DNA from: a virus
Lineage: Duplodnaviria > Caudoviricetes
Virus record (IMG/VR): IMGVR_UViG_3300031942_000005
Coordinates: 1 to 57,643 of that record
Length of the DNA stretch: 57,643 bases
Direction: 5' to 3' (one strand)
Shown here piece by piece: positions 1 through 16,589 of this stretch (the stretch's first letter is position 1; every line of letters starts with the position of its first letter). The position numbers were made by a program, and so were the translations under genes. The notes beneath the pieces were generated by a model that was given only the letters and a program-made list of their open reading frames with translations, was not told where the DNA came from and ran no database searches.

Positions 1-55
1 TGGCGGGCGGCTGGGTGATCCACTACTGGAGCGCGCGGAAGGGACCATTGGAGCC

Positions 56-940
56 TTGGGATTGAAGCGCGACCCCGATAGGATTCGGGCCTGGCAGAGG
101 CGCTCGCAAGAGACCGCACGCCAACGCCAGCGAGAGCGGGGGAACGGCTCACGAGATTCCCCCTCTCCCCCACCGGTCCCCCGCTCCCGCCCCAAGCCGT
201 CCGCCGCTAAGGCGGCGCGGCTGTGTGGCATCGAAGGTTGCCAGCGCGCCCACTTCGCCAAGGGCCTGTGCAACACGCACTACTACCGTCTGAGGCGCAC
301 AGGCACCACGGACCTCATACCCCCAAGGGCACGTACCCGGCGCCCGGTTGAGTACCGCAGGCAGGGCCAGGAGCCGCCTGAGGGCAGGCCACGGCGCAGG
401 GTGGCACGCGACGGCCGGGTGCACCTCATCTGGAGCCTCAAGGACCGCACCGTGATCATGGTCGAGCGGTCGCCCACTCAGCAGGAGAGGGACGAGCGCG
501 AGGCCGAGGTCCGTCACCTCCACGGCCAGGGACTCAACCAGGGCCAGATCGGTAAGGCGATGGGCCTGCACCCGGCCACCGTCTCGCGGATCGAGGAGCG
601 CCTGGGTCTCCGCGAGTTCCGGGAGAAACCCAAGAGGCGGACCCGCGGCGACACCCGGTACGAGCGGGCGTTCAGATGGGCCTCGGTGGAGATCCACAAG
701 CGGTCGTTCCGGCGCTGCGAAGTCCGCTGCTCGCCGTGGTGCTCGGGCCAGGGTGTCCACGTCCACCACCGCAAGATGCGCTCCCAGCGGGGGGACAACG
801 AGCTGGTGAATCTCATCGACACCTGCCCCGAGTGCCATCGGTTCATCCACGCTCAGCCGAGGGTCAGTTACGCCCGCGGCTGGCTGGTCCACACCTGGCA
901 GGATCCCGCGCAAGTACCCTGGCGCGCATGGACGGTGTAG
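56..940 (+). CDS. HNH endonuclease with Zn-binding and HTH domains (start uncertain)
   Basis: CGIEGC...GLCNTHY Zn motif; HTH QGLNQGQIGKAMGLHPATVSRI; C-terminal CEVRC...HVHHRK...NELVNLIDTCPECHRFIH. Confidence 0.8.
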   Translation: MGLKRDPDRIRAWQRRSQETARQRQRERGNGSRDSPSPPPVPRSRPKPSAAKAARLCGIEGCQRAHFAKGLCNTHYYRLRRTGTTDLIPPRARTRRPVEYRRQGQEPPEGRPRRRVARDGRVHLIWSLKDRTVIMVERSPTQQERDEREAEVRHLHGQGLNQGQIGKAMGLHPATVSRIEERLGLREFREKPKRRTRGDTRYERAFRWASVEIHKRSFRRCEVRCSPWCSGQGVHVHHRKMRSQRGDNELVNLIDTCPECHRFIHAQPRVSYARGWLVHTWQDPAQVPWRAWTV

Positions 941-1254
941 GCGTGCGCTCCATCAAGCCCGACTCCGCGCTGCTCGTACAGGTCCAGGACATGCTCCTGG
1001 CCGAGTACGCCGAGCGCCACGTCCGCGCCGTCCTGGTCGAGCTCAAGCCCTCGAACTACCGCAAGCTCCTCGACGAGCTCAAGATGACCGGGCACTCGAC
1101 GGGCCGCCAGATCACGAGCCACAACCGCATGGGCTTGTACGTGGCCGATTTCGTCACGGGGCGCTACGCCCGCCTCGCGATGGACCCCTCCCTGCGACGC
1201 AACCAGGTGAGGATCCAGTGGAGAGCAGACCGCCATGACCTTGTTCGAACTTGA
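928..1254 (+). CDS. hypothetical protein
   Basis: ATG 928 overlaps the upstream stop; phage-typical codon usage. Confidence 0.6.
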   Translation: MDGVGVRSIKPDSALLVQVQDMLLAEYAERHVRAVLVELKPSNYRKLLDELKMTGHSTGRQITSHNRMGLYVADFVTGRYARLAMDPSLRRNQVRIQWRADRHDLVRT

Positions 1255-1795
1255 CCCGCCGGCCGCAGACGTGGCCGAGGAGACGGCCGAGTACAACGAC
1301 GACCCCGTGGTGCTCGAGTTCATCGGCCTGCCCCACCCCCAGGGTTCCAAGAGCGGGGTGTGGAACGAGCGGCTGGGGCGCGTGCTGGTGCTCGAAGGCA
1401 AGTCGGACCAGGGCCGCATGAAGCACGAGGCGTGGCGGGCCGCGGTCTCGGTGGGCTGTCGCCAGTGGCTCACCCGCCACCCCCGGCCCCCCTACGCCGA
1501 GCCGGTCCAGGTCGACATCGAGTTCCGCTTCCCCCTTCCGGCCTCTGGCACCCACCGCCACCGCCACACGACCAAGCCCGACCTCGACAAGCTGGTACGG
1601 GCTACCTTCGACGCCATGGTGGTGGGGGGACTGCTGGCCGACGACGCCCGGGTGTGCGGCCTGATCGCCCGCAAGCGCTACGCCCGGGGCACCGAGACTG
1701 CCGGGGCCTCGGTGACCGTGTGGCCGCTCGGGGCCGACGAGCAGCGCGACCGCGAGCGCTCCAAGGCAGCGGCAAGGGAGGCGCGTAGACGGTAA
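1235..1795 (+). CDS. rusA: RusA-family Holliday junction resolvase
   Basis: PHPQGSK and KPDLDKLVRATFDAM...DDARV catalytic Asp motifs. Confidence 0.9.
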   Translation: MTLFELDPPAADVAEETAEYNDDPVVLEFIGLPHPQGSKSGVWNERLGRVLVLEGKSDQGRMKHEAWRAAVSVGCRQWLTRHPRPPYAEPVQVDIEFRFPLPASGTHRHRHTTKPDLDKLVRATFDAMVVGGLLADDARVCGLIARKRYARGTETAGASVTVWPLGADEQRDRERSKAAAREARRR

Positions 1796-1971
1796 AGAGG
1801 GCACACGACTGCCCAGCACCCGGCACGGTGCCATGCGCACCCGGCTCCGGTCCTGACACGCCAGGGCCGGTAGACGAACCACCGGACGAATGCGACGGAG
1901 GTGGCCGCCCGCAGAAACACCCGATCAGAGAGAGCCCACTCGTGACGTGGGCCGACCGAGAGGAGGTGCTC

Positions 1972-2601
1972 ATGCGGAAACACCGCGTTGGCGCACTCGT
2001 GTTCACGGCCTTGGCTATCGAGGCCGCAATCGTCGTACCCCTAGCCCTACTCCCCGATCCAGGAGCAGCACCACAGCCCACCAAAGGGAGCCACCCATGG
2101 CATTTCCACCGAACCAGGCAAGCGAGGGACTCCTTGCGAGCATCGCGAACCACCCGGCAGGCGGGCGCACCCGCCACCACCACTACGTCTATGACGACGA
2201 CCACAGCGCCGACGTCATCGACTTCGCCGAGCCCCAGTCCGTCCCCGGCGGCGAGCCCATCCTCCGCCTCGTCTACGTCGACGGCCAGCTCTGCACCGAC
2301 GACACCGAGCACTACTACGACGAGCGCCGGCGCAGACTCGGGGGCTGACCCGGCGAGCTACGCCGAGTGGAGCCGAGTCGAGCAGTGTGAGAGCGGGGGC
2401 GTCTCTGCGGACGGGCCGACCTACTTCGGCCTGCTGGGGATCAGCGGGCAAGCGTGGGCGGCCTATAACACTTTCGGGTTCCCCGCGAGCGCCTACGACG
2501 CGACCCTGGCTCAGCAGATCGTGGTGGCCCAGGCCATAGAGGCGGCTGCGGGGATGGCTGGCTACGTGCCAGATCAAGGAGGTACCTGTAGTGCGTGGTG
2601 A
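1972..2601 (+). CDS. Secreted/membrane-anchored Rpf-like lytic transglycosylase
   Basis: AGGAGG RBS at 1961; N-terminal hydrophobic helix; Ser/Thr linker; WSRVEQCESGG...YFGLLGIS..AW...ATLAQQIVVA resembles the Rpf domain. Confidence 0.75.
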   Translation: MRKHRVGALVFTALAIEAAIVVPLALLPDPGAAPQPTKGSHPWHFHRTRQARDSLRASRTTRQAGAPATTTTSMTTTTAPTSSTSPSPSPSPAASPSSASSTSTASSAPTTPSTTTTSAGADSGADPASYAEWSRVEQCESGGVSADGPTYFGLLGISGQAWAAYNTFGFPASAYDATLAQQIVVAQAIEAAAGMAGYVPDQGGTCSAW

Positions 2602-2748
2602 CCTAGCGTTGCGCCCGTGTGGTGGCTCCGGTGGTGGAGGAGACGGCAGATCACCTGGCGCTTCACCATCGGCCCGGTCACCCTCAGAGAGGACCAGCCC
2701 GAGCCGGGCCTCCCCGGCACCCCAGCGACAGGAAGTGAGGCACTCACC

Positions 2749-3114
2749 GTGCAGCTGACCTCAGACCAGCAGACCAAGCTCAACCTCAGCGGCCAGGACT
2801 TCTACGGCAACGAGGTGGAGATCACGGGCCGCACCGTGTGGAGCAGCTCTGACCCCACCATCGTCCAGCTCGTCCAGAGCGCGGCCGACGACACCATGGT
2901 GATCGCCCAGGCGGTGGGGCCCACCGGCTCTGCCGCGGTGACCGCCACCAACGACGTCAACCACGACGGCACCGGCGACTTCATCGGCAGCATCGCCATC
3001 GACGTGGTGGCCGGGGTGATGACCGACATCGTGATCGAGGCCGAGGATGCGACCGACAAGCCGGGCGACGCCCCGGCGCCGACACCGCCCGGGCCCCCCG
3101 CCACCCCGCAGTAG
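2749..3114 (+). CDS. hypothetical Ig-like beta protein (alternative start 2617)
   Basis: TVWSSSDPTIV resembles the bacterial Ig-like (Big) motif. Confidence 0.55.
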   Translation: MQLTSDQQTKLNLSGQDFYGNEVEITGRTVWSSSDPTIVQLVQSAADDTMVIAQAVGPTGSAAVTATNDVNHDGTGDFIGSIAIDVVAGVMTDIVIEAEDATDKPGDAPAPTPPGPPATPQ

Positions 3115-3123
3115 CTAGGGGAC

Positions 3124-3151
3124 TTGACAGGGGGTGCCGCTGGGCTAGGCT
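3124..3151 (+). promoter_or_regulatory. sigma70/HrdB-type promoter
   Basis: TTGACA (3124-3129) N16 TAGGCT (3146-3151), intergenic, followed by a GGAGG RBS. Confidence 0.7.
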
Positions 3152-3177
3152 CCTTGCTCTGGAGGAAGGAGAGCAGC

Positions 3178-3576
3178 GTGGCACCAGCGGTGAGGACCCC
3201 CAGCGAGGTGGAACTACGGGCCGAGGGCATCCTCGGGCAATTCGAGGGCGACCCGGTGACCGCGGTGGGCATGAGCTTCACCAACGTGGCCGGGGCCATG
3301 AACGAGTCGCTCGAGGTCGAGCCCCACCTCATGCACAAGGGCGAGTCCTGCTTCGTGGTGCTGCGCTGCGACTGCGTGAGCGTGCAGTTCCCCAACGTCA
3401 AGGGCAACGAGGACCAGTCCCGGCGGGTCCAGGTGATGCGGGTGACCGACGCCACGGTGCTGCGCGAGGCGCCCGCCACGGTGCAGCGGGCCATAGATCG
3501 AATGCGAGCGGAGATCCAAGCGCGTCGCGACGCGGAGGACGGCCAGGGGAGGCTCATGGGGGATGAACGCCTGTGA
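3178..3576 (+). CDS. hypothetical protein
   Basis: GGAGGAAGGAG then GTG 3178. Confidence 0.7.
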   Translation: MAPAVRTPSEVELRAEGILGQFEGDPVTAVGMSFTNVAGAMNESLEVEPHLMHKGESCFVVLRCDCVSVQFPNVKGNEDQSRRVQVMRVTDATVLREAPATVQRAIDRMRAEIQARRDAEDGQGRLMGDERL

Positions 3577-3827
3577 GCATCCCGACGGGGCGGCGCCCGG
3601 GGGAGGCGCCGCCCCTGGCCGTGGACCTGCTCGCGCAGATCATCGACCTGGGCTTGGAGATCGCAGAGGTCAAGGGCCAGCTCGACGCCCTCTACGCGGC
3701 GCGCGTCGCCAAGTACGTGGACGCCCACGAGAACGGTGCCACCCTCCAAGAGATCGCCGAGGCGGCCGGCGTCACCCGCCAGGGGGTCAAGTACATCCTC
3801 GCCAAGCACAAGCGGGCCAAGAGGTGA
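3573..3827 (+). CDS. small HTH DNA-binding protein
   Basis: GATLQEIAEAAGVTRQGVKYIL HTH. Confidence 0.8.
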   Translation: MSIPTGRRPGEAPPLAVDLLAQIIDLGLEIAEVKGQLDALYAARVAKYVDAHENGATLQEIAEAAGVTRQGVKYILAKHKRAKR

Positions 3828-3833
3828 AGCACG

Positions 3834-4118
3834 ATGGATGACGCCGAACTAGTCCAGGCCAAGCAGGAGCGCAACAGCGCATCTAAGCGAGCAGCCGATT
3901 GGGAAGCTGCTTGCTATCGGATCGACTCTGACAACGCCCGCCTCCGCGCCGAGCTAGAGACCGTGAGGGAGGCCGCGCGGGCGTGTGCCGATTCAGTCGT
4001 CACAACTATGGGCGTGTTCGATGACGGCGAAGAAGAAGAAATGTTGATCGTGCCGCCGAACACTTTGGAAGCACTCCGCCTCGCCCTCAGTAACGAAGGA
4101 GGGGGCGATGATGGATGA
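3834..4118 (+). CDS. cassette-array ORF 1 (coiled coil)
   Basis: Ends in repeat-encoded LSNEGGGDDG. Confidence 0.7.
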   Translation: MDDAELVQAKQERNSASKRAADWEAACYRIDSDNARLRAELETVREAARACADSVVTTMGVFDDGEEEEMLIVPPNTLEALRLALSNEGGGDDG

Positions 4119-4314
4119 GCGCCTGACGGACCTAGAACGGCAGTTTTGTGAAGTGAACGATCTGCGCGTCCAACACTTTGCCGACCTAATGAAAGCCCAA
4201 GCCGAGAACGCCCGCCTTCGCGCCCAGCTAGAGGCTGCGAGGGAAGCCGTGCAGATGGGTTCGATGTCTGTCCTTACCGCCGCCCTCAGTAACGAAGGAG
4301 GGGGCGATGGGTGA
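4108..4314 (+). CDS. cassette-array ORF 2 (coiled coil)
   Basis: Starts at repeat ATG, ends LSNEGGGDG; shares NARLRAxLExxREA with ORF 1. Confidence 0.7.
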   Translation: MMDERLTDLERQFCEVNDLRVQHFADLMKAQAENARLRAQLEAAREAVQMGSMSVLTAALSNEGGGDG

Positions 4315-4582
4315 ACCGATCATTCACCTTTGCACGGCGGCTGATGTTGGCATGGCCGAAACCTGCATGTGCTGTGGCGGCTGGGTGTACGCCGAAGGCA
4401 ACACCGTTCCGATTCCTGGCAGCAGCCCAACCCTTCAATACTGCTCTCAGGACTGCCACGACGCCTGGGAGGGTGTTCTGGCCTACGAAGCTGAACAGCG
4501 GCGCAAGCGCAAAGAGTTCGATGACTGGGAGGATGCGCTGTTCGACGCCGCCCTCAGTAACGAAGGAGGGGACGATGGTTGA
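4307..4582 (+). CDS. cassette-array ORF 3 (Cys-rich, putative Zn finger)
   Basis: CMCCG...YCSQDC; repeat at both ends. Confidence 0.7.
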   Translation: MGEPIIHLCTAADVGMAETCMCCGGWVYAEGNTVPIPGSSPTLQYCSQDCHDAWEGVLAYEAEQRRKRKEFDDWEDALFDAALSNEGGDDG

Positions 4583-4850
4583 CGCAGCCTCCTGTGACTG
4601 CGAAGCCGAAGAGACTGGAACGCATTGGAAGGGCTGCGAATACCGTCCGATGGAACTCACGAAGGGCGAGTTCGTGACGGCTTGTGAGGGTGGCGCTGCG
4701 GCGGTAATCGACACTTACCGCTGGTGCATTGAGGAAGAGGGGATGACATCCGATGCGGCGAAGGAAATAGCAGTGGAAGAGGCGAGAGAATCGGCGGCCT
4801 GTTTTGCTGGGATCGGGTCATGTTATGGCGGCGGTTGCAAGCATGGCTGA
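4575..4850 (+). CDS. cassette-array ORF 4 (Cys-rich)
   Basis: Starts at repeat ATG 4575. Confidence 0.65.
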   Translation: MVDAASCDCEAEETGTHWKGCEYRPMELTKGEFVTACEGGAAAVIDTYRWCIEEEGMTSDAAKEIAVEEARESAACFAGIGSCYGGGCKHG

Positions 4851-4877
4851 CCGGCTCAGTAACGAAGGAGGGGGCGA

Positions 4878-5042
4878 GTGAGGGTACGCATCGAATGGAA
4901 ACCGCAGGACTGTTGGATCGGCGCGTTTTGGAAGGCGGGGCACCTGTGGGTCTGCATTGTGCCAATGCTCCCGATTCACTTCTACCGGCTCAGTAACGAA
5001 GGAGGGGGCGATGGGTCACTGCGAGAAGGTGCGGGGCAATGA
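4878..5042 (+). CDS. cassette-array ORF 5 (54 aa, Trp-rich)
   Basis: GTG in repeat 4; MRVRIEWKPQDCWIGAFWK...RLSNEGGGDG...; translated by hand. Confidence 0.6.
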   Translation: MRVRIEWKPQDCWIGAFWKAGHLWVCIVPMLPIHFYRLSNEGGGDGSLREGAGQ

Positions 5043-5203
5043 CCAACATCGTCGTATCGAGGAAGGAGATGGCGGAGATTCGTGAACGAGTGCGACTCGG
5101 CCTTCCCGTTGCCGCCTTCCTGGTGGAGAAGCTGCTCCGGGTGATTGACCTCGGCCGCACCGCCGACGCCCTCAGGAACGAAGGAGGGGACGATGAAGAT
5201 TGA
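5039..5203 (+). CDS. cassette-array ORF 6 (54 aa)
   Basis: ATGA overlap with ORF 5; MTNIVVSRKEM...ALRNEGGDDED. Confidence 0.55.
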   Translation: MTNIVVSRKEMAEIRERVRLGLPVAAFLVEKLLRVIDLGRTADALRNEGGDDED

Positions 5204-5372
5204 CGAAGTACGGGCGAAGTGGGAACGGTTCAACGCCCGACTCCAAGAGGGGGACGGTGATGGCTCTCTCATGGGTGCAGCATTCATAATCGCCCGCTCG
5301 GGGGTGACAGATGTTCGTCGGCTCTGTGACGAAATCGACCGGCTCAGTAACGAAGGAGGGGACGATGGGTGA
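5193..5372 (+). CDS. cassette-array ORF 7
   Basis: Repeat ATG start; ends LSNEGGDDG. Confidence 0.65.
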   Translation: MKIDEVRAKWERFNARLQEGDGDGSLMGAAFIIARSGVTDVRRLCDEIDRLSNEGGDDG

Positions 5373-5556
5373 GGGAGAGATTCTCCGCGTGGAGCAGTCC
5401 GTACTTGAGCGAGAAACCGCCCGCCAGATGAATGTCCTGACGTGGGCGCTAAGCAAGGCGTGCGAGGATGGATGGACAGACGGCCCCGCTGCGATGCGCC
5501 ATTACCTCATGGACGCCGAAGCCGCCCTCAGTGACGAAGGAGGGGACGATGAGTGA
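5365..5556 (+). CDS. cassette-array ORF 8
   Basis: Repeat ATG start; ends LSDEGGDDE. Confidence 0.65.
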   Translation: MGEGEILRVEQSVLERETARQMNVLTWALSKACEDGWTDGPAAMRHYLMDAEAALSDEGGDDE

Positions 5557-5743
5557 GTTCCCCCAATCCGAGGAGTATCGGCCAGATGATTCCGTTGCGG
5601 GGGATTGTCTCGGCGGGTTTGTAGACGACAGCGGGGCGACTCTGGAATTGATCTGCGGTATCTGCGGATTCAGGGGAACGCCCATCGTTGCTGGCGCTCA
5701 CGATTGCGCCGCCCTCAGTGACGAAGGAGGGGACGATGGGTAA
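5549..5743 (+). CDS. cassette-array ORF 9 (CxxC...HxC)
   Basis: Repeat ATG start; ends LSDEGGDDG. Confidence 0.65.
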   Translation: MSEFPQSEEYRPDDSVAGDCLGGFVDDSGATLELICGICGFRGTPIVAGAHDCAALSDEGGDDG

Positions 5744-6125
5744 GCAGAACCTCGCGAGCTGGACGATGCCCTGGGACGAGATTGCCGAGCGAGTGGGCGC
5801 GCTGCTGCCGGGGCGCTTCAAGTGGGAGTCGTTCGGCTCCGATGGCATCGCCGGGGTCGAGCGTGCGACGACGGTCATCATCACCGTGGCCGAGCACGAC
5901 GACGGCGTCGAGTGGGTCCATGCCTCGGTCGCCAAGCCCGACCGCTTGCCGAGCTACCACGACCTGGTGGCGCTGCACAAGGCGCTGTGGCCCGATGGCT
6001 TCGCCTACCAGGTGTTCGCCTCCGAGGAGCGCCACGTCAGCATCCACAACCACGCCCTGCACCTGTGGGGTCGGCGTGACGGTGCGAACGTGCTGCCCGA
6101 CTTCGGCGCGGCCGGTTCCATATGA
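5736..6125 (+). CDS. conserved phage protein (DUF7694-like)
   Basis: WVHASV...PSYHDL..LH...HVSIHNHALHLW; starts at the last repeat. Confidence 0.7.
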   Translation: MGKQNLASWTMPWDEIAERVGALLPGRFKWESFGSDGIAGVERATTVIITVAEHDDGVEWVHASVAKPDRLPSYHDLVALHKALWPDGFAYQVFASEERHVSIHNHALHLWGRRDGANVLPDFGAAGSI

Positions 6126-6138
6126 GACGAGAGGGACG

Positions 6139-6276
6139 GTGGGTGAGCGCAGGTCATGGTGGCGCCCCTACATCACCTGGGGGCGCCGGCAGTTCCGCAT
6201 CGGCGTCTGGCGTCAACGCCGCGACCGGGTCTGTCCCGAGTACAGGTTCATCGGAGTGGAGAACCAATTGTGGTGA
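6139..6276 (+). CDS. small hypothetical protein
   Basis: GAGGG RBS then GTG; fills the gap and overlaps the next start. Confidence 0.4.
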   Translation: MGERRSWWRPYITWGRRQFRIGVWRQRRDRVCPEYRFIGVENQLW

Positions 6277-6416
6277 GCGAGGAGACCTGCCGTTCGTGCG
6301 GCGCGCCGATCACCTGGGTCAAGACGGAGTCGGGCAAGTGGATGCCGCTGGACCCTGACGGCACCTCGCACTTCGCCACCTGCCCCGACGCCGCCAAGTG
6401 GCGGAAGAAGCGCTGA
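6273..6416 (+). CDS. small Zn-finger phage protein
   Basis: CRSCGAPITW...GKWMPLD...SHFATCP. Confidence 0.75.
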   Translation: MSEETCRSCGAPITWVKTESGKWMPLDPDGTSHFATCPDAAKWRKKR

Positions 6417-9055
6417 TGGACCGCACGATCGAGTACATGCCCGTGGCCGAGCTGGTCGAGCGCTTCCACCCGGCCAACCCCAAGGACCACGACCTCGAGG
6501 AACTCAGACGTTCGATGGAGCGCTTCGGCTACACCGAGGCGGTCATGCTCGATGAGCGCACCGGGCTCATGGCGGCGGGCCACGGGCGCATCGAGATACT
6601 CGCCCACGACATGGCCGAGGGGCTGTCGCGCCCCGACGACGTGACCGTGGACGAGCGGGGGTGGCTGGCCCCGGTGCAGCGGGGCTGGCACTCCCGCAAC
6701 GACGTCGAGCTGCTGGCCTACGTGGTGGCCTCCAACCGCATCGCGGAGAAGGGCGGGTGGGTGGACGCCGGGCTGGCCGACGCCCTCCAGCTGATCGCCT
6801 CCACCTCCGAGCTGGGCCTCGAAGGCATCGGCTTCAACCTCGACGACCTGGCCGCGCTCAAGTACACCGGACCCGACGAGCCGGACCAGATCATCGCCAG
6901 CCGCAAGCTGGCCGAGCGCTTCTTGGTCCCACCCTTCTCCATCCTCGACGCCCGCCAGGGCTACTGGCAGGAGCGCAAGCGGGCCTGGATCGCACTCGGC
7001 ATCCAGAGCGAGCTGGGCCGCCCGCAGAACGCGCTGCGCCCCGAGATACCCACCGAGGGCAACGCCCGGCTGCGCAGCGGGGCCTACGGCGCCCAGGCGC
7101 ACATCGGGCCCGACGGCCGGCTGGTCTACACCCCCACGGTCGGCATCGTGTCGATCTTCGACCCCGTGCTCTGCGAGGTGGCCTACCGCTGGTGGTGTCC
7201 CTCGGGAGGCCTGGTGCTCGATCCCTTCGCCGGGGGGTCGGTCCGGGGCATCGTGGCCGGGCGCCTCGGGCTGGAGTACGTGGGCTACGACCTGCGCGAG
7301 GACCAGATCGCGGCCAACGAGGTGCAGTGGCAGGCGATCCACGGGGAGGGGACGGTGCGCTGGATCCGGGGGGACTCGCGCGCCGCCCCTCTGCCCGAGC
7401 GGGCCGACTTCGTGTTCACCTGCCACCCAGCGGGCACTCGGGTGTCAGTCGTGGGGCGGGGGCGCGTGGCGATTGAAAACGTGGAGCCGGGGGACTACGT
7501 GGTGTCACATACGGGACGCTCGCGGGAGGTGACCGAAGTGCTGGCGCGCCAGTATTCCGGCCCGCTCTATGCCATCAAACGTTCCTATAGGCAGGCCCCG
7601 CTGCATGCCACGGCTGAGCATCCTCTGCTGGTGTCACGAGGCGGCTCCACCGCTTGGCGGCGAGCGGATGAGATACGGGTGGGCGATGAGCTGGTCGAGC
7701 CTGTGCCTACCGAGCCTCCCAAGGTGTTAGACGGCGAGATTATCTGGGAACATCCACCCCAGAAGGGCCGAGGCAGACCCCCCAGGGGGAACCGTCAGGT
7801 ATATGCCACCCCCGAGGTGTGCCGACTCCTGGGGTACTACCTGGCAGAGGGATCAATCGGCGGCCACGCCGTGCAGTACGCCTTTCATGCGGACGAGGTG
7901 GAGTACCACCGCGATGTGACCGCTCTGCATGGGCACATTTTCAGCGCCGACCTGAGCGTGAGGACGCGCCTCGCTCCTGGGACGAAGCAGGCCGATGTGC
8001 ATGCCTGTGGCGCGGTGCCCGCTCGTTTCTTCGCCAATACAGGGAGGGGCGCTCACGCGAAGAAGTTCCCTGGCTGGCTCTGGGACTGTTCCGACAACTT
8101 GCTCACCGAAACCCTTGTTGGCGTATGGCGAGGCGATGGCTGGCGCTCTGGCGGTCGGCTTGGCTATGACACCGTGAGTGAGAACCTCGCTGAGGACATA
8201 CGGAGGGCGCTGCTAAGGCTTGGCGTGGTGGCGTCAGTACGGTGTCGGCACCGCGGGGCCACCAACTATGGGTCAGCTCGCCCCGTGTGGAGCCTGACGG
8301 TGAGGGGAGCGCAGGCAGAGCGCCTGGCATCCATCCTTGGCTGGGCGCTCCCCGCCCCCACAGAGAGAGTCCGAAGCCGGGGGGACGGCAAGGCGGGCCG
8401 TGCGGCATGGTTTGGTCGCCGGCCCTCACGGAGTCCATACATCCAGGCTGGATATGTCCACTACCGGGTGGAGAAAATCGACACGAAAAGTGTCAAGGCG
8501 CTGCCGGTGTTCAATTTGGAGGTGGATGCCGACCACTCATATCTTGCCGATGGAGTGGCGACTCATAATTGCCCGCCCTACTACGACCTGGAGAGGTACT
8601 CCGACGACCCCGCCGACCTGGCGAACGCGGCCACCTACGCGGAGTTCCTGGCCGACTACGCCCACATCATCGGCCGGGCCGTCGAGAGGCTCCGCGACGA
8701 CCGCTTCGCGTGCGTCGTCGTGGGGGAGGTGCGCGACGGCGAGGGGTTGTGCCGGGGCCTGGTCCCCGACACCGTTCAGGTGTTCGAGGCGGCAGGGCTG
8801 GCCCTGTACAACGAGGCCATCTTGGTCACGCCCGTAGGGTCCCTCGCCGTCCGCGCCGCCAAGATCTTCGAGGCGGCCCGCAAGACCGGCAAGGGGCATC
8901 AGAACGTGCTGGTGTTCGTCAAGGGCAACCCCGAGCTGGCGGCGGGCGCCTGTGCGCCGGTGGAGCGTCTCGACCTCACCGAGGCCGAGGCCATAGGCCA
9001 GGACCTCCCCGAGGAGGCCCCCAGACAGCCTCAGGAGGCCCGGACCCAGGCGTAG
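6416..9055 (+). CDS. ParB-like N-terminal domain plus DNA amino-methyltransferase, intein-containing
   Basis: HPANPKDH...RFGY...AGHGR ParB-like motif; LDPFAGG SAM-binding motif; FT|CPPY motif IV split by the intein. Confidence 0.88.
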   Translation: MDRTIEYMPVAELVERFHPANPKDHDLEELRRSMERFGYTEAVMLDERTGLMAAGHGRIEILAHDMAEGLSRPDDVTVDERGWLAPVQRGWHSRNDVELLAYVVASNRIAEKGGWVDAGLADALQLIASTSELGLEGIGFNLDDLAALKYTGPDEPDQIIASRKLAERFLVPPFSILDARQGYWQERKRAWIALGIQSELGRPQNALRPEIPTEGNARLRSGAYGAQAHIGPDGRLVYTPTVGIVSIFDPVLCEVAYRWWCPSGGLVLDPFAGGSVRGIVAGRLGLEYVGYDLREDQIAANEVQWQAIHGEGTVRWIRGDSRAAPLPERADFVFTCHPAGTRVSVVGRGRVAIENVEPGDYVVSHTGRSREVTEVLARQYSGPLYAIKRSYRQAPLHATAEHPLLVSRGGSTAWRRADEIRVGDELVEPVPTEPPKVLDGEIIWEHPPQKGRGRPPRGNRQVYATPEVCRLLGYYLAEGSIGGHAVQYAFHADEVEYHRDVTALHGHIFSADLSVRTRLAPGTKQADVHACGAVPARFFANTGRGAHAKKFPGWLWDCSDNLLTETLVGVWRGDGWRSGGRLGYDTVSENLAEDIRRALLRLGVVASVRCRHRGATNYGSARPVWSLTVRGAQAERLASILGWALPAPTERVRSRGDGKAGRAAWFGRRPSRSPYIQAGYVHYRVEKIDTKSVKALPVFNLEVDADHSYLADGVATHNCPPYYDLERYSDDPADLANAATYAEFLADYAHIIGRAVERLRDDRFACVVVGEVRDGEGLCRGLVPDTVQVFEAAGLALYNEAILVTPVGSLAVRAAKIFEAARKTGKGHQNVLVFVKGNPELAAGACAPVERLDLTEAEAIGQDLPEEAPRQPQEARTQA
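7421..8569 (+). mobile_element. Intein (383 aa) with LAGLIDADG homing endonuclease
   Basis: Starts CHPAGT; block B ATAEHP; LLGYYLAEG and LVGVWRGDG motifs; ends VFNLEVDADHSYLADGVATHN then Cys +1; atypical codon usage. Confidence 0.93.
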
Positions 9056-9112
9056 GGGGGAGTAGCCCAGGGGTCACCATCAGGGGCTTGTGCGGCTGCG
9101 TAGGCTGGCTGC

Positions 9113-9352
9113 GTGGAACGCGACGAGCGCGCTGAGCGTGAGGAAGTCGAGCCGACCCCCGAGCCGGAGGAGGAGCCCGTAGACCACCACCGGGGCCCGC
9201 TGGACCGGGACGAGGACGGCCGCTTCTTGGACCGCGACGACCCCCGCCGCCTGGAGGCAGAGGAGCGCCTGGGCAAACGGTTCGATCCAAGTGACGAGGG
9301 CAAATCGGACGAGGAGATCGTCGAGAGTGCCCTCCGCGAGCCCAGACGATGA
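9113..9352 (+). CDS. small acidic hypothetical protein
   Basis: Glu/Asp-rich ORF; its stop overlaps ATG 9349. Confidence 0.55.
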   Translation: MERDERAEREEVEPTPEPEEEPVDHHRGPLDRDEDGRFLDRDDPRRLEAEERLGKRFDPSDEGKSDEEIVESALREPRR

Positions 9353-9396
9353 CGCTGCGCAGAGGTTCGGGCGTGCGCCTCGTCGTGCTCCACAGG
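9349..9396 (+). pseudogene. Relic 5-prime end of the endolysin (MTLRRGSGVRLVVLH)
   Basis: Aligns with endolysin N-terminus MTLRR...GGSSVRLVCCH; similarity ends at the HNH stop codon. Confidence 0.7.
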
Positions 9397-9837
9397 TCAG
9401 CGCCGCGGGCGGTGCGCCTCTCGGACCACCATGCAGGCGCGGCACATCCGGCTGCGCGGTGCGCCCGGTGGCCGGTACGTGTTCGCCGCGTCGTAGGGGT
9501 GCCCGGCGGGGCAGTGGGTCTTACGAGCGTTCAGCGCGCTGAGGGTCTCGCCGCGCCGGTTGTTCTCGCGGTGGGTGACCAGCTCCAGGTGCGCAACGTT
9601 GACGCAGCAGCGGGTGCGGCAGAGGTGGTCCACCTCCAGGCCCGCCGGGATCGGTCCATGCGCGAGTTCCCATGCCACCCGGTGCACGTAGGTCTGACCC
9701 GCCTCGCGCCCACCCCGGCCGATGACGCCGTAGCCATTGCCGTTGTTCGCACCCAGCCACAGCCAACAGTCGTCGGGCCCACCCTTGCGGACCCTGCGCC
9801 AGAGGCGCTCAGCCAGAGGTATTGCCTTACGAGGCAT
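9397..9837 (-). CDS. Free-standing HNH homing endonuclease
   Basis: DDCWLWLGA...GYG...VHRVAWELAHGPIPAGLEVDHLCRTRCCVNVAHLELVTHREN; KTHCPAGHPY. Confidence 0.92.
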   Translation of the reverse strand: MPRKAIPLAERLWRRVRKGGPDDCWLWLGANNGNGYGVIGRGGREAGQTYVHRVAWELAHGPIPAGLEVDHLCRTRCCVNVAHLELVTHRENNRRGETLSALNARKTHCPAGHPYDAANTYRPPGAPRSRMCRACMVVREAHRPRR

Positions 9838-9853
9838 AGAGGGTCCCCCTAAG

Positions 9854-10768
9854 ATGACGTTGCGTAGAGACTGGATTGCAAGCCCAAACTATAGCTCCCG
9901 TGGTGGGAGTTCTGTAAGACTTGTATGTTGTCATACAGCTGAGGGAGCCCTCACCTACCAGTCGCTGGGCAACTACTTCGCCAGCTCGTCGTCGGGGGTC
10001 TCGAGCCATGTCGGCATCGACTCGACCCCGGGGGTGATCGGCGAGTACGTGGCGCCGGCCAACAAGGCCTGGACCCAGGGCGACGCCAACCCGTGCGCCG
10101 TGTCGGCGGAGCTCTGTGCCTTCGCGGGGTGGTCAAGCGCGGACTGGGCCGCCCACCCGGTGATCCTGGAGAACGCGGCGGCGTGGGTGCGCGAGGAGTG
10201 CGCCCGCTTCGCCATCCCCATCCGCTCGCTCTCCGCGGCCGAGGCCCAGGGTGGCGTCGCCGGGGTGTGCGACCACGTGGACCTCGGGGCGTGGGGCGGG
10301 GGGCACTGGGACTGCGGGCCGAGCTTCCCCATGGCCCAGGTGATCGCAATGGCGACAGGGGGAGCGACCTCTGCGCCACCAGCACAGAGGAGTGGTGCCA
10401 TGGACATCAAGAAGACCAGCGGGGGGTACTACATCTTCGCCTCAGACGGCGGGGTGTTCTGCTTCGGTGACGCGCAGATGTACGGCTCGATCCCGGGCCT
10501 CAAGCCGCCTGTCGTCCTCTCCTCGCCCATCGTGGGCGGGGCGGTCACGCGTTCGGAGCGCGGCTACTGGCTGGCCGGGGCCGACGGCGGGGTGTTCGCC
10601 TTCGGCGACGCGCAGTTCGACGGCTCGATGGGGGGCAAGCGGATGAACGCGCCGGTGGTGGGCATCGAGGCCGATCCCGACGGCGACGGCTACTGGCTGC
10701 TGGGCCAAGACGGCGGGGTGTTCGCCTTCGACGCGCCCTTCTACGGCTCGGCCCAGGGGCACGTCTGA
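9854..10768 (+). CDS. Endolysin: N-acetylmuramoyl-L-alanine amidase plus wall-binding repeats
   Basis: SPNYSSR...HTAEG, SSH, AWTQG, ELC, H...HWDCG amidase_2 motifs; three GY(W/Y)xxxxDGGVFxF repeats. Confidence 0.9.
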   Translation: MTLRRDWIASPNYSSRGGSSVRLVCCHTAEGALTYQSLGNYFASSSSGVSSHVGIDSTPGVIGEYVAPANKAWTQGDANPCAVSAELCAFAGWSSADWAAHPVILENAAAWVREECARFAIPIRSLSAAEAQGGVAGVCDHVDLGAWGGGHWDCGPSFPMAQVIAMATGGATSAPPAQRSGAMDIKKTSGGYYIFASDGGVFCFGDAQMYGSIPGLKPPVVLSSPIVGGAVTRSERGYWLAGADGGVFAFGDAQFDGSMGGKRMNAPVVGIEADPDGDGYWLLGQDGGVFAFDAPFYGSAQGHV

Positions 10769-10774
10769 GCGTGA

Positions 10775-11017
10775 GTGAATGCGGGCGACATCGTCGCGAT
10801 CGTCACCGGCCTCGCCGCTCTGGTTTCTGCCGTCGCCGGGGTCATGCTGGCCGTCCGTGCCGCGCGCTCGAAGGAACGGGCGGCCCATAGCGAGGAGCTG
10901 GAGTCGGTGACCACCCTGCTCGAGACCGAGCGCAAGGAGCGCATCGCCGCCGAGCTGGACCGCCATCAGCTGCGCCTGCGGCTGGCCGAGAACGGGATCG
11001 ACCCCGATGCTCTATAG
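10775..11017 (+). CDS. membrane protein, putative holin/lysis accessory
   Basis: N-terminal TM helix and coiled coil, directly after the endolysin. Confidence 0.6.
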   Translation: MNAGDIVAIVTGLAALVSAVAGVMLAVRAARSKERAAHSEELESVTTLLETERKERIAAELDRHQLRLRLAENGIDPDAL

Positions 11018-11663
11018 GTTCTTCCGCGTCATCTACCGCAATGCCTCGGCGGCCTTCATCGTGGCCTGCCTGTTCACCATCGTGGCCGTCCTCGCCCTCG
11101 CCCTCGGAGCCGAGGCGACACCCACGCCCGGGCCGACCGGACCAGCCGGCCCGCCGGGTCAGAACGGGCCAGCCGGGCCCAAGGGGGACCCCGGGGCGAC
11201 CGGACCTCAGGGCAGCACCGGCCCCACCGGCTCGGCCGGGGCCGACACCGACGCCGGGGGCTCCAGCTCAGGTGGCGGGACCGGCGCGGCCGGGAGCGGG
11301 GGGGCCACTGGCGGCGCGGGGACAGCGGGGACCACCGGCTCGGCCGGGGCGACGGGCAGCGCGGGGGCCACCGGCTCGGCCGGGGCGACGGGGTCAGCTG
11401 GCTCGACGGGCAAGACTGGGGCCACCGGGGCGACCGGGGCTATGGGCAGCGCGGGGGCCACCGGCGCCCAGGGTCCGCCCGGGCCACCCGGAGCGACCGG
11501 GGCCACAGGTGCGACCGGTGCGACGGGTGCGACGGGGGCACAGGGGGCCAAGGGCGAGACCGGACCGGCCGGGCCGCCGTGCCCGCCTGGGTTCAAGCAG
11601 AACCTCATCCAGGTGAACGGCCCGGGGGGCGGCCAGACGATCCTGGTGTGCGTCCGTGGCTAA
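11007..11663 (+). CDS. membrane-anchored collagen-like protein
   Basis: TM helix, Gly-X-Y repeats, C-terminal CPPG...VC. Confidence 0.8.
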   Translation: MLYRFFRVIYRNASAAFIVACLFTIVAVLALALGAEATPTPGPTGPAGPPGQNGPAGPKGDPGATGPQGSTGPTGSAGADTDAGGSSSGGGTGAAGSGGATGGAGTAGTTGSAGATGSAGATGSAGATGSAGSTGKTGATGATGAMGSAGATGAQGPPGPPGATGATGATGATGATGAQGAKGETGPAGPPCPPGFKQNLIQVNGPGGGQTILVCVRG

Positions 11664-12331
11664 TCGGAGCGGCGGTGGGTCCCGACGTGGAACCAGGGCG
11701 AAGCGCGGAGCAGGTGGGGGAACTCCCCCGGCGCCACCCCGCGGTTCCGGCACACCACGGGGAGGGCGAGCTGATCCTGGTAGGACCACGCCGCCACCTC
11801 GGCCCACCAATCCGAGAAAAGGGCATCAGCAGAACCGGCGTGGGATGCGATGACCCCGCACTCCCACAGACCCCAGTGCTCGGGGTGGGCGTACTCGCGG
11901 CGGTAGAACTCGACCTGCTCGTAGAGGGGCTCGGTGCCGTACTTCTCGGGCAGGTCGCGCATCGAGACCTCGGCTTCTTCGTAGATGTCGTCGCGCAGGG
12001 GGTGGCGGTGGACTCCAATGCCTGAAGCCTCGGCGTAGGCCAGCGCCCCCTCCACCGCCTCGGGTGTCCGCACCGCCACGTTGGCGTCCACCCACAGGCG
12101 CCGGCGGTAGTCGGGCACGTAGAGGTGGGGCAACAGCTTGAAGCGCTTGGCGGTGCGCCGGGGGTGTTCGAGCTCGTTGTGCTCCACCACCACCACGTCC
12201 CAGCCCGGCGTGTCGAGCCAGGGGTCGTCGGTGAAGCAGATGTGGTCGGCGCCGGGGGTCAGCGGGATCAGCGGGACGTAGTCGAAGCCCCCGTAGCAGG
12301 CTGTGTAGACGAGAGTGCGGTTACGGGACAC
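11660..12331 (-). CDS. glycosyltransferase-like protein (DUF616/MUCI70-type)
   Basis: VYTACYGGFD, ICFTDD, KLLPH, WVDAN, HPLRDDIYEEA, QDQLAL. Confidence 0.82.
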   Translation of the reverse strand: MSRNRTLVYTACYGGFDYVPLIPLTPGADHICFTDDPWLDTPGWDVVVVEHNELEHPRRTAKRFKLLPHLYVPDYRRRLWVDANVAVRTPEAVEGALAYAEASGIGVHRHPLRDDIYEEAEVSMRDLPEKYGTEPLYEQVEFYRREYAHPEHWGLWECGVIASHAGSADALFSDWWAEVAAWSYQDQLALPVVCRNRGVAPGEFPHLLRASPWFHVGTHRRSD

Positions 12332-12848
12332 GGGAGAAACACCACAGCCCGTAGGTCGGCTTGGCGAGCACGGGGTCCCACTGGACCTCGTAGGCGCGCA
12401 CGCGCCACTCGTAGAACAGCCCCTCGATCTGCTCGGGGGTGAAGTCGTGGCGGTGGTAGGGGTTGAAATGCTTGGTGGGGATGATGGGGGTGGAGAGCAC
12501 GATGTAGCGCCGGGCCATCTTGGCGGCGCGGACGTAGGCCGAGTAATCGGACAGGTGCTCGATCGTCTCGAGGCCCACGAACACATCGAAGGGGAAGCCG
12601 GGCTCCCATGTCGTCAGGTCCGCCTCGATGACCTCGGTGCCCGGGCGGTCAAGGGCGGGGTCGGTCGGCGCCACGAGGTCGACACCGACCCAGGCCGCCC
12701 CGTTGAGGAGGGCCCGCCCGTAGCCCGTCCCGCAGGCGGCGTCGAGGACCACGTCCTTGGTCGCGACCCACGACGAGGCCCAGCGGTAGCGGTAGCGGTG
12801 GAGCTCTATCTGCTCGAAGTCGTTGCAACCTGCGGGCAGGCGCTCCAC
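12321..12848 (-). CDS. class I SAM-dependent methyltransferase
   Basis: HRYRY...VLDAACGTGYG...GVD...ETIEHL...STP. Confidence 0.88.
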   Translation of the reverse strand: MERLPAGCNDFEQIELHRYRYRWASSWVATKDVVLDAACGTGYGRALLNGAAWVGVDLVAPTDPALDRPGTEVIEADLTTWEPGFPFDVFVGLETIEHLSDYSAYVRAAKMARRYIVLSTPIIPTKHFNPYHRHDFTPEQIEGLFYEWRVRAYEVQWDPVLAKPTYGLWCFSRVP

Positions 12849-13363: not shown

Positions 13364-13619
13364 CAGGCGGCCCTCCCCGGTCCCGGCGGGTCAGCCACTC
13401 GTGCAGGCCCTTGTTGAGGGCCTCCGCGGAGCCGACGATGCCCTCGGCCCGCCCTAAGACGTGACCGAGGCCATAGATCATCTCGAACGATGCCTCGAAC
13501 GCACTCACCGGCAGCCCGGTTTCCCGAGCCATGCCGCTGACCCAGATGCGCCGCACGTTGGCGACGGTGTTGTGGATCGCTTCGACGTTCGTGAGGTTCT
13601 CGTCCTCAGGTATTCCCAT
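13350..13619 (-). CDS. hypothetical protein
   Basis: Start motif ACACAGAGAGGAGCAACACCATG. Confidence 0.7.
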   Translation of the reverse strand: MGIPEDENLTNVEAIHNTVANVRRIWVSGMARETGLPVSAFEASFEMIYGLGHVLGRAEGIVGSAEALNKGLHEWLTRRDRGGPPDEAA

Positions 13620-14124
13620 GGTGTTGCTCCTCTCTGTGTATCTCCTGGTCGAAGGGGCGTTGTGTCCCTCCGATATCGCCGGCCTCCGCTATGTCGGCCT
13701 CCGCCTCCGCGATCTGCTGTGCGTTCCACCCGAAGGGCAGGATCACCCCGGGGGGGAAGACGAACAGGTGGTACTCGTTGGCGGTGTCGAGCACCCGCGA
13801 TTGCGCGGGGTACAGCTCGATGGCCTCGCACTCGGCGCCGGCGATGTCATTCTTGAGGCGCTGGGTGTCACGCCAGTCCCGCGCGGCCTTGCGGTCGCGG
13901 CGGTGGTAGCTGATGTGCCGCACGTTGCCCGCGTCGTCCCGGGTGATGAACGCCGAGTAGATGCTGTTGCCCCAGACCTCGGGCTCTTGGTACGTGTCGC
14001 CCATCTTGGCGATGAGCGCGTCGCGCCGAGCCTTCTGCTCCGGGCTGCCGGTGAAGAAGCTCACCGAGTGGCGCATCGGATCCCAGCGGCGGGGCGGAGT
14101 GGGGCCACGGCGTCGCTTAGCCAC
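13606..14124 (-). CDS. conserved phage protein (DUF7694-like)
   Basis: HISY.RRD...DWRDTQRLKNDIAG.ECEAIELYPAQSRVLDTANEYHL. Confidence 0.75.
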   Translation of the reverse strand: MAKRRRGPTPPRRWDPMRHSVSFFTGSPEQKARRDALIAKMGDTYQEPEVWGNSIYSAFITRDDAGNVRHISYHRRDRKAARDWRDTQRLKNDIAGAECEAIELYPAQSRVLDTANEYHLFVFPPGVILPFGWNAQQIAEAEADIAEAGDIGGTQRPFDQEIHREEQHHGNT

Positions 14125-14251
14125 GTCGTTGCCCCCGATCCACCTCGTCGCAGTCATCGCAGATACCCACCTGGATGCCACGAGCACTAGGCACGGGCAC
14201 GCTGACCCGCGTGAATTTGTGGCACTTCCAGCAATAGCCGAAAAGTCGCAT
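14117..14251 (-). CDS. small Zn-ribbon protein
   Basis: MRLFGYCWKC...ICDDC; coupled to neighbours. Confidence 0.55.
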   Translation of the reverse strand: MRLFGYCWKCHKFTRVSVPVPSARGIQVGICDDCDEVDRGQRRG

Positions 14252-14745: not shown

Positions 14746-15044
14746 CTTTCCTCCTCGGGCACGTAGAGCTGGGTCAGGATCTGAAGGACCCTGGCCCGGC
14801 GCACGGTGTCGATCTGCATGAGCGCAGCGACACCGGAGCCCGGGACGTCGGGGTTGCCGGTCCACACACCCCGTGCCATGCGGACGAGGTACTGCTCGCC
14901 CCTCGACAGCAGACGGAAGGGTGCACGGTCCGAGGCCAGCTGCTCGAAAACGAGGCCGGGGTCGCCGAGCGTGAAAAGGTCGGCGGTCACCGGCGAGTCG
15001 ATCTCGCGCAGGATGGCCCAGGTTGCTTGGGTTGTTGACAGCAT
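14742..15044 (-). CDS. hypothetical protein
   Basis: Conserved start motif; MLSTTQATW. Confidence 0.75.
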   Translation of the reverse strand: MLSTTQATWAILREIDSPVTADLFTLGDPGLVFEQLASDRAPFRLLSRGEQYLVRMARGVWTGNPDVPGSGVAALMQIDTVRRARVLQILTQLYVPEEER

Positions 15045-15158
15045 GGTTGTTTCTCCTGTGTGTGGTGCGTGGGGGAACCTCCCCCGCGGGGCCACCCCCC
15101 AGAACGGGGAGTTCGGGAGTGACCCCGCGGGAGGCCGGGCCGGAGCCCGGCGTCCCAC

Positions 15159-16514: not shown

Positions 16515-16589
16515 GGTTGTCCTCCTTGTGTGTCCGGGATGGTCCCGGCGCGGGGGCACCGCCGAGGTGGCGATGCCCCCTGGTCGGGG

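Follow-up and report, generated by a model that had tools for sequence, protein, structure and literature searches.

A 25-nt linker sequence, CTCAGTRACGAAGGAGGGGRCGATG, is repeated nine times on the same strand of an uncultured viral contig (IMG/VR record IMGVR_UViG_3300031942_000005; the whole stretch of 57,643 bases, classed as linear and with an estimated completeness of 62%, is referred to here as the window), where the copies span positions 4086 to 5738 and connect a run of very small genes. The best reading of this linker is a standardised gene junction within a variable region of non-structural genes, carried by an uncultured, high-G+C, actinobacteriophage-like soil phage. We consider it probable that this standardised translational junction doubles as portable homology for cassette shuffling. 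Comparison with related contigs (labelled L or G; G001 and L017 are the same), all of them short-read assemblies from similar soils, shows at the level of the assembled sequences that cassette differences between relatives begin and end in the linker and that cassettes are common to unlike backbones.

An earlier note on this DNA had described nine near-identical repeats lying 134-302 bp apart, and this description was confirmed: the pattern CTCAGTAACGAAGGAGGGGRCGATG is found in nine copies, all on the plus strand and with zero to two mismatches each, compared with zero expected (100 shuffles). The linkers start at 4086, 4285, 4553, 4855, 4989, 5171, 5343, 5527 and 5714, all within 1.65 kb, with spacings of 199, 268, 302, 134, 182, 172, 184 and 187 nt. 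A position-weight matrix was built from all related linker copies and then run over the window; the nine copies scored 40.8-61.7 bits, the next best site of the window -6.6 bits and the best of five shuffles -4.0 bits. Given the gap between 40.8 and -6.6 bits, the linker family is sharply bounded, with no decayed members in the window. Conservation continues past the 25-mer over about 37 nt, taking in (C)GCCGCC to the left and ATGGGTGA to the right; among unique copies, the left flank CGCCGCC is conserved at approximately 80% and the right flank ATGGGTGA at 60-89%. The copies in the window are as follows.

4086..4110, plus strand: linker copy 1, 0 mismatches, 52.0 bits
4285..4309, plus strand: linker copy 2
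4553..4577, plus strand: linker copy 3
4855..4879, plus strand: linker copy 4, 2 mismatches, 40.8 bits, with a GTG start at +23 and not an ATG
4989..5013, plus strand: linker copy 5, whose own ATG at 5011 opens just 24 codons
5171..5195, plus strand: linker copy 6, 1 mismatch, AGG replacing AGT
5343..5367, plus strand: linker copy 7, the right-hand partner in both deletion variants (L030 and L034, below)
5527..5551, plus strand: linker copy 8
5714..5738, plus strand: linker copy 9, the ribosome-binding site and start of a DUF7694 backbone gene

Read from left to right, the junction carries tail codons, then a strong Shine-Dalgarno (SD) core, AAGGAGG, and, after a 5-nt spacer, the ATG at which the following gene begins. 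The upstream gene ends in the tail (AA)LS(N/D)EGG, its frame usually stopping 2-9 nt past the ATG (typically in ATGGGTGA), and another frame stops at a TAA inside the repeat. The earlier claim that every copy is read by an upstream open reading frame (ORF) as LS(N/D)EGG holds for eight of the nine copies and fails for copy 4, where the ORF at 4575-4850 stops 4 nt earlier. The accompanying claim that each copy provides a start codon likewise needs qualification at copy 4, with its GTG, and at copy 5, with its 24 codons. The cassettes of the window array are listed below.

3834..4118, plus strand: cassette 0, 94 aa, coiled-coil-like, with no linker before it and ending in LSNEGGGDDG via linker 1
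4108..4314, plus strand: cassette 1, 68 aa, coiled-coil-like, a paralogue of cassette 0
4307..4582, plus strand: cassette 2 (B), 91 aa, Cys-rich, recurring in many arrays in differing neighbourhoods
4575..4850, plus strand: cassette 3 (C), 91 aa, Cys-rich, stopping 4 nt before linker 4 and hence without the tail
4878..5042, plus strand: cassette 4, 54 aa, what is left of the 5' part of a cassette that relatives have in full (623 nt)
5039..5203, plus strand: cassette 5, 54 aa, with a separate ATG at 5039, reading linker copy 6 and ending in LRNEGGDDED
5193..5372, plus strand: cassette 6, 59 aa, no known family
5365..5556, plus strand: cassette 7, 63 aa, no known family
5549..5743, plus strand: cassette 8, 64 aa, no known family, its 3' end plus linker 94% identical to a stretch of L015

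The array differs from its surroundings in composition. Its G+C content is 0.59-0.63 (in segments between 3751 and 5850) compared with 0.67-0.72 on both sides, and the G+C at third codon positions (GC3) is 0.65-0.73 for the three array ORFs that a crude caller picked, compared with 0.80-0.98 for most other calls and 0.74-0.77 for a few, in agreement with the previous observation that the array genes are more A/T-rich than their neighbours. The same trend was seen in all 14 contigs with a measurable array (0.59-0.63 vs. 0.65-0.71 elsewhere). When the ten array ORFs of the window were searched against Pfam and PHROGs, only DUF7694 and weak coiled-coil matches were returned; an Atlas search gave nothing usable for cassette C and unnamed clusters for cassette 0, and the AlphaFold model of cassette B had a mean pLDDT of 61.7.

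Outside the window, approximately 90 further linker copies lie on 30 contigs of uncultured soil viruses or metagenomes, of which an exact-pattern scan found seven among the other IMG/VR contigs (eight loci) and 23 as metagenome stretches. It was absent from all 50,697 cultured-phage records searched, with nothing beyond chance 18-25-mers, and from 185,579 prokaryote species (one genome each); the linker thus does not identify the host. Over the window and the 30 relatives, 100 copies lie on one strand and one on the other (up to four mismatches). The 97 copies with full flanks collapse to 54 unique junctions; because many contigs cover, with overlaps, parts of the same small set of phage populations, in soil samples that may come from one campaign, these 54 junctions should not be taken as 54 independent lineages.

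The pattern of conservation across the 54 unique junctions indicates what is being preserved. Positions 0-21 are almost invariant, and only two polymorphisms are common, A/G at position 6 and G/A at position 19, both of which fall on first or second codon positions of the tail frame and alter the peptide (N/D and G/D). At each of the seven third-codon positions of the tail, 52-54 of the 54 junctions have the same base, while synonymous differences in neighbouring homologous cargo amount to 0.13-0.47 (non-identical variant pairs). Therefore, the linker is kept as nucleic acid and not as peptide, and the tail is best seen as the in-frame reading of a ribosome-binding region that is conserved at the nucleotide level. 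In the cargo itself, pN/pS is about 0.08-0.22 (cassette B) and 0.15 (cassette C), indicating real genes under purifying selection.

The layout of the junctions is equally regular. The ATG lies at +22, 5 nt past AAGGAGG, in 45 of the 54 junctions. In 43 junctions the longest upstream frame is that of the tail, in seven it is the one closed by the internal TAA and in four the one running into the next gene; the tail-frame stop is most often located at +27, inside ATGGGTGA (25 junctions). Because of the stop in ATGGGTGA and the internal TAA, two of the three frames end a few bases from the next start, an arrangement typical of termination-reinitiation coupling. Outside the SD core, CTCAGTRAC and GRCG are also invariant.

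The second part of the reading, the shuffling of cassettes, is based on relatives in which cassettes are absent, present, reordered or replaced at the repeats. Two contigs represent deletion variants of the window: L030 corresponds to positions 3176-4884 (99.7%) fused to 5337-5487 via a hybrid of linkers 4 and 7, and L034 corresponds to positions 3938-5016 (100%) fused to 5335-5485 via a hybrid of linkers 5 and 7. Both junctions are clean, consisting of the left flank of linker 4 or 5, a single linker and the right flank of linker 7. The gene order of the window is retained in L035 and L031, the former sharing a sample series with L030. L037 and L042, with 94.7% identity over 7.9 kb, differ by cassette B, which L042 holds between two linkers and which L037 lacks at that place and carries 1.4 kb upstream. 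The window has B followed by C, whereas C is followed by B in L010, L023, L028 and L041. A fixed gene order without gain or loss at the repeats, which the earlier note had named as a refutation, is thus not what the relatives show, and this favours shuffling; the earlier proposal of a recombination-driven capture and shuffling platform is supported in its shuffling half, with a dedicated capture platform as a conjectural alternative to a conserved initiation junction that lends itself to ordinary recombination through short homology.

Whole arrays also turn over. The backbone downstream of the array is 71-88% identical at the nucleotide level among G001, L012 and L018, and their arrays (10, 8 and at least 3 linkers, respectively) have only one B fragment in common. 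Conversely, cassettes in relatives match the window at 84-100% nucleotide identity compared with at most 71% for backbone nucleotide matches, and the non-cargo proteins of the window reach only 47-66% amino acid identity for the endolysin, 52-59% for the small ORF before it and 40% for one HNH gene. The extreme case is the pair L010 and L032, whose backbones show no similarity although their B cassettes, together with the stretch that follows, are nearly identical (99.6% over 276 nt). In the group of G001, L012 and L018, the array is closely followed by a 130-aa gene and a 533-aa ORF (L017 (G001) 3195-5210; L018 560-949); the 533-aa ORF was guessed from its sequence to be a large terminase subunit, but has no Pfam match. 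Since the window array lies instead between a helix-turn-helix (HTH) gene and the DUF7694 gene, arrays sit at different genome positions.

Some of the differences reach into the cassettes. The 623-nt cassette is complete in L020, L024, L027, L032 and L034, and cassette 4 of the window represents its first 105 nt or so: window positions 4855-4981 are 96.9% identical to its start in L020, L027, L032 and L034, and the L024 match stops at 4981, 8 nt short of linker 5. A different cassette of L034 has a 3' end that matches the 3' half of cassette 0 at 100% identity, a 114-aa ORF of G001 combines the 5' part of window cassette 1 with the 3' part of cassette 0, and in variants of B the tail is joined at differing points. 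Linker alleles were identical in four of nine pairs sharing an upstream flank and in seven of 21 sharing a downstream flank (Fisher p = 0.69). The markers travel with either neighbour, which crossovers anywhere in the linker would predict. An eye-made table had suggested that the linker is owned by the upstream cassette, as attC would be; the same count (4/9 vs. 7/21) gave this candidate no support.

In the mechanism that we propose, a single transcript probably covers the genes, perhaps starting at a promoter-like site at 3124, and the cassettes would be translated as a coupled chain from identical, optimised initiation regions, with some factor that may bind the conserved bases outside the SD core. 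The 25-nt core (to about 37 nt with flanks) would act as portable homology, allowing linkers to recombine within a genome and between co-infecting phages, likely through annealing-type homologous recombination, single-strand annealing or template switching. The outcome would be deletion, reordering or exchange of whole cassettes with the expression signals intact in each product, and selection on the junction together with repeated recombination would keep the linker uniform as the cargo diverges. Replication slippage, too, classically acts on direct repeats with spacings such as these, 134-302 nt. The feasibility of the mechanism is further aided by the SSB and RusA-like resolvase encoded in the window; additionally, the ERF family (PF04404) was detected in two of five records (G001 and G003; the five being the window and four related records). 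A published account puts the shortest segment that pairs efficiently at 23-27 bp with Red-beta and at 31-34 bp with RecA, and shows an Erf protein to be as active as Red-beta (PMC3945230). Short-homology recombination is plausible by length alone, because the 25-nt core (30-37 nt with flanks) fits this pairing minimum.

Several points weigh against this interpretation. The operon, the translational coupling and the promoter are read from sequence alone, and the comparative evidence comes entirely from short-read soil metagenome assemblies, maybe of one campaign. Six of the eight viral contigs (window included) end within approximately 300 nt of a linker; as contig ends near linkers show assembler trouble, there may be chimeras among the contigs. 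In the three events that look most recent, the informative linker markers are those of the left partner only, which uniform homologous crossing-over does not predict, although heteroduplex repair could explain it and n = 3. The invariance of CTCAGTRAC, outside the SD core, is without explanation. RecT, ERF, AAA_24 and YqaJ were not recognised in the window itself, a record that is 62% complete. Finally, Logan contigs of four soil runs contained three weak joints (sides of 20-29 nt), none of which reproduced the L030 or L034 deletion.

The same Logan data were examined for other joints. No back-joining joint was listed for the four runs, and in one run there was no cover over 4972-5439, which by the rule of the tool is not evidence. 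Loose ends at linkers lead to other cassettes, possibly from other phages. In runs X1, X2, X3 and X9, more Logan contigs were found on window positions 4270-4620 (cassette B) than on the backbone, contig depth not being equal to copy number, and two B alleles were present per run, with alternative letters at six to nine positions each and nine in all. This fits with several co-occurring phages carrying cassette B.

A bolder version of the preferred reading, which we regard as unlikely although less so than the rivals that follow, would make the linker the universal plug of an integrase-free exchange network, with directional exchange primed at the start-codon end and a working tail signal. A common pool of promoterless cassettes (methyltransferase, HNH, HIT, Zn-binding and coiled-coil) would then circulate among unrelated soil phages and arrive with ready-made translation signals. 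Template switching or the repair of nuclease-made breaks would prime the exchange at the start-codon end, and the acidic tail could signal timed degradation or virion packaging.

A dedicated mobility system is an improbable alternative, in which the linker would be an attC-like site for an enzyme that escaped recognition, either a site-specific recombinase or a nuclease (for example a homing HNH enzyme). Such a system would be in keeping with the integron-like variation of array content, with exchange 3' of linker position 19, near the start codon, in the three recent events, with an 84-aa HNH cassette directly after a linker in L011, L014, L037 and L042, and with the invariant bases outside the SD core, for which no reason is known. 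The searches for its components were negative. Phage_integrase and Resolvase domains (PF00589, PF00239) were found in none of the five records, all of them fragments (16-75% complete), while controls were positive for PF00589; the earlier statement that no integrase is in view therefore holds for tyrosine and serine recombinases in five of five fragmentary records. The same five records had no match to PF03837, PF13479 or PF09588. The HNH cassette is missing from the array of the window. A single fixed crossover point is also difficult to reconcile with the linker alleles, as five of nine pairs with the same upstream flank differ and seven of 21 with the same downstream flank are identical, and breakpoints also occur inside paralogous cargo (the 114-aa ORF of G001).

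The linker likewise lacks the structure expected of an attC-like site. It has no conserved inverted repeat: a hairpin that would hide the SD (GCCCUC...GAGGGGGC) was considered and rejected, being predicted in only some copies and folding no better than shuffles (z of -1.19 to +1.26). The left arm is missing in three of the nine window copies, and about 18% of unique junctions have GG instead of CC in this arm with no compensating change. In the absence of a conserved hairpin, the claim that there are no attC palindromes is upheld. No Rfam match was obtained at E up to 1 in window positions 3000-6600, no promoter-like site was found in positions 1-12500, the linker has no -35/-10 pair, and no terminator-like site is present at any linker. 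The linker was therefore correctly distinguished in the earlier note from the promoter-containing repeats of T4-type phages, to which we return below.

Even less probable is that the selected feature is the shared C-terminal peptide, (AA)LS(N/D)EGG(G/D)D, for example as a sorting, packaging or degradation tag, with the DNA repeat as its consequence. The use of the tail frame in 43 of the 54 unique junctions, the presence of the tail on unrelated proteins and the conservation of the upstream Ala-Ala codons at about 80% are what a peptide tag would predict. The nucleotide pattern predicts otherwise: there is zero synonymous variation at the seven third-codon positions, the two common changes alter the peptide and the codons are set by the SD core. 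Moreover, 11 of the 54 junctions are not in the tail frame, cassette C has no tail, and the residues past EGG vary in both length and sequence (GDG, DDG, DDE, GE, DAAPV).

The homologues of cassette B were informative on the same question. A HMMER search with B gave 11 relatives at E up to 0.001, and all eight that were fetched are small, Cys-rich and without the tail, and the tail is also lacking in a ninth, closer homologue, P0006, from a word-based search; cargo homologues that lack the tail, which the earlier note had proposed to seek, thus exist. Three of these nine (P0006, P0007 and P0012) end in EDALYA or EDGLYA, the motif directly preceding the tail in the array copy. Because the homologues stop where the tail begins, the tail appears to be added when the gene sits in an array. 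A further variant of B, P0002 (a homologue of window positions 4307-4582), has a decayed tail, AALNDDG, followed by a good tail, AALSDEGG; this double tail looks like the relic of a lost cassette, with two linkers fused in one ORF.

For the cargo in general, the contigs together yield 56 unique cargo or leader proteins; 38 of these were scanned against Pfam, and most had no match. One member each was assigned to DUF7694, HNH (two models), HIT (and two related families), HTH_17 and a weak coiled-coil family. Additionally, the G001 array contains a complete C-5 DNA methyltransferase cassette (279 aa, L017 505-1344, PF00145, E = 3e-36) that ends in the LSNEGG tail, and a C-5 methylase fragment is present in L039. 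The G001 methyltransferase starts at a GTG 4 nt past the ATG of the linker. The 84-aa HNH endonuclease cassette directly follows a linker in L011 (390-641) and L037 (8319-8570), as well as in L042 and L014, with two differing upstream neighbours; it could be a free-standing homing-type nuclease using the array. An anti-restriction or host-takeover role of the cargo is a guess, for which the G001 C-5 methyltransferase is the sole hint.

The least probable explanation is a passive one, either tandem duplication with the linkers as the slowest-evolving remnant or mis-assembly at a short repeat; it is suggested by coiled-coil paralogues (window cassettes 0 and 1 and several of G001 and L012) and by the frequent breaks of contigs at arrays, but is contradicted by cargo that is mostly unrelated (a Zn-ribbon-like protein, HNH, HIT, C-5 methylase, DUF7694), by a linker that is unchanged where adjoining synonymous sites differ by 13-47%, by the recurrence of the K8-K3-K4-K7-B order in the separately assembled L020, L027 and L032 and of the K5-C-B order in L010, L023, L028 and L041, by the clean hybrid linkers, and by a linker that is shorter than the longer assembly k-mers commonly used.

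Compared with known systems, the array as interpreted here, that is, a translational junction doubling as portable homology, is integron-like in logic only. An integron combines an IntI integrase, attC sites that are imperfect palindromes, a Pc promoter and promoterless cassettes. As in an integron, the array has a content that differs among relatives, and its cassettes, which all point one way, seem to lack promoters of their own and may lie behind a common one (one promoter-like site at 3124 and none inside the array). It differs in that no integrase, no attC-like imperfect palindrome and no fixed crossover point were found, and in that the linker bears translation signals, which attC does not.

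The closest system in behaviour is that of the PeSLs of T4-type phages, repeats composed of a promoter and a stem-loop that lie between small genes and mediate modular shuffling (PMC2839356, PMC4122927). As far as the parts of these reports that were compared extend, both systems have short conserved expression signals between small, mostly ORFan genes in a plastic region, repeat-bounded indels or replacements among relatives (here L030, L034, and L037 vs. L042, together with the turnover among G001, L012 and L018) and a homology-driven, integrase-free process. In those same parts, the PeSL is an intergenic sigma-70-like promoter with a terminator stem-loop, whereas the linker has neither and is read as coding by the upstream gene; its hosts are Gram-negative, whereas those here are probably high-G+C Gram-positives; and mini-circles were physically shown there, whereas the array is known only as sequence.

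In position and form, the closest system is formed by start-associated sequences (SAS), overlooked in the earlier note and described with the related ESAS for Cluster K mycobacteriophages (PMC3203893) and as a SAS-like motif for Microbacterium Cluster EF phages (PMC7302621). Within the passages compared, SAS are likewise asymmetric, one-orientation motifs at the ribosome-binding position, a few bases before the ATG (here 100 vs. 1 copies by strand), show conservation beyond what rRNA pairing would seem to require (here in CTCAGTRAC and GRCG), and precede non-structural genes of unrelated families, with an upstream stop that may fall inside the motif. They differ, according to the same passages, in being 13 bp long, with other consensus sequences in Cluster K and Cluster EF, and in being scattered over half a genome in intergenic gaps, and no role in cassette exchange is described for them there. 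The linker, by comparison, measures 25-37 nt, is confined to one array, is usually translated as a shared tail (eight of nine copies overlap the upstream frame) and is common to unlike backbones. The SAS sites are partly given in supplements, and their overlap with upstream genes may exceed the main-text account.

The third parallel is relaxed recombination by Rad52-like annealing proteins, for which the published part compared describes mosaic joints at short identity, 23-27 bp against the 25-nt core here (PMC3945230). ERF genes in two of the five related records fit with this parallel. In that part of the account (PMC3945230), however, the homologies are chance ones of diverged genes, whereas a dedicated, repeated homology under functional constraint is found here at each gene boundary. 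Supplements aside, no description was found in the literature of a repeated junction that encodes a C-terminal tail, an SD and a start.

Phage genomes are mosaic, and conserved boundary linkers that guide module exchange are an old idea with few clear examples, of which the PeSLs are the best documented. The array would be a second, independent design, in actinobacteriophage-like phages, in which the shared element is the translational junction itself; because of this, any recombinant would stay expressed and most cargo would gain the same tail. The array may also help to explain why actinobacteriophages have their puzzling start-associated motifs, and it marks small, fast-moving genes as candidates for host-takeover or anti-restriction functions. 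For polycistronic constructs in high-G+C hosts, the linker could additionally serve as a natural standard part.

The array is embedded in the following features of the window.

56-940: HNH endonuclease gene, upstream of the array
1235-1795: RusA-like resolvase gene, upstream of the array
3124..3151, plus strand: putative promoter-like TTGACA-N16-TAGGCT, upstream of the gene run holding the array
3178..3576, plus strand: ORF of 132 aa, no known family, the first after the promoter-like site
3573..3827, plus strand: small DNA-binding protein of 84 aa with a helix-turn-helix, immediately before the array (phrog_686, E = 2e-5; phrog_7061, E = 5e-5)
5736..6125, plus strand: DUF7694 gene, 129 aa, the right border of the array (PF24746, E = 1.3e-16)
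6398-9055, plus strand: ParB-DNA methyltransferase gene, 885 aa, after the DUF7694 gene and followed by an endolysin gene

The TTGACA-N16-TAGGCT reported earlier at 3124 is indeed present and is the sole match to TTGACA-N16-18-TANNNT in the window (0.01 expected); the site was not listed by a generic sigma-70 scan. The DUF7694 gene has a backbone-like composition (GC3 of 0.90), its start region being linker copy 9, and is 69-75% identical at the nucleotide level to genes of Arthrobacter, Microbacterium and Gordonia phages. Within positions 3100-6600, similarity to cultured phages is limited to this gene and the first bases of the ParB-methyltransferase gene (69-76%); megablast against cultured phages gave no match, and a distant blastn search returned only the DUF7694 gene and the 5' end of the ParB-methyltransferase gene. 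The term actinophage-like refers to this similarity to Arthrobacter, Microbacterium and Gordonia phages. No comparable repeat occurs around the DUF7694 genes of Arthrobacter phage Pureglobe5 or Microbacterium phage Terij.

Further downstream, the window contains a minus-strand gene block at 12-25 kb, with the SSB among its products, and large plus-strand genes from 28 kb on that have a structural look, judged by size alone. A second start-region motif, unlike the linker, lies directly before the ATG of at least seven minus-strand genes at positions 13617-24711 (also 15038, 19650 and 21945). Its parts are CACA, an SD rich in purines and an A-rich spacer that ends in CC, and it is located in short gaps that are not read by the upstream genes. 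The phage may therefore use two standardised initiation regions for two gene sets.

Three minor observations concern other parts of the window. In the ParB-DNA methyltransferase ORF, methyltransferase profiles match two to three separate stretches, and the unmatched middle of approximately 350 aa has the look of an intein-type insertion. ARAGORN called a 92-nt tRNA-Gly (anticodon acc) at 56054-56145 on the minus strand, opposite a large plus-strand ORF (54688-56454), which is maybe a false call. Long, very G+C-rich repeats that are Gly-X-Y-like (collagen-like) are present at 11172-11581 and 33448-34458 and probably belong to tail or fibre genes.

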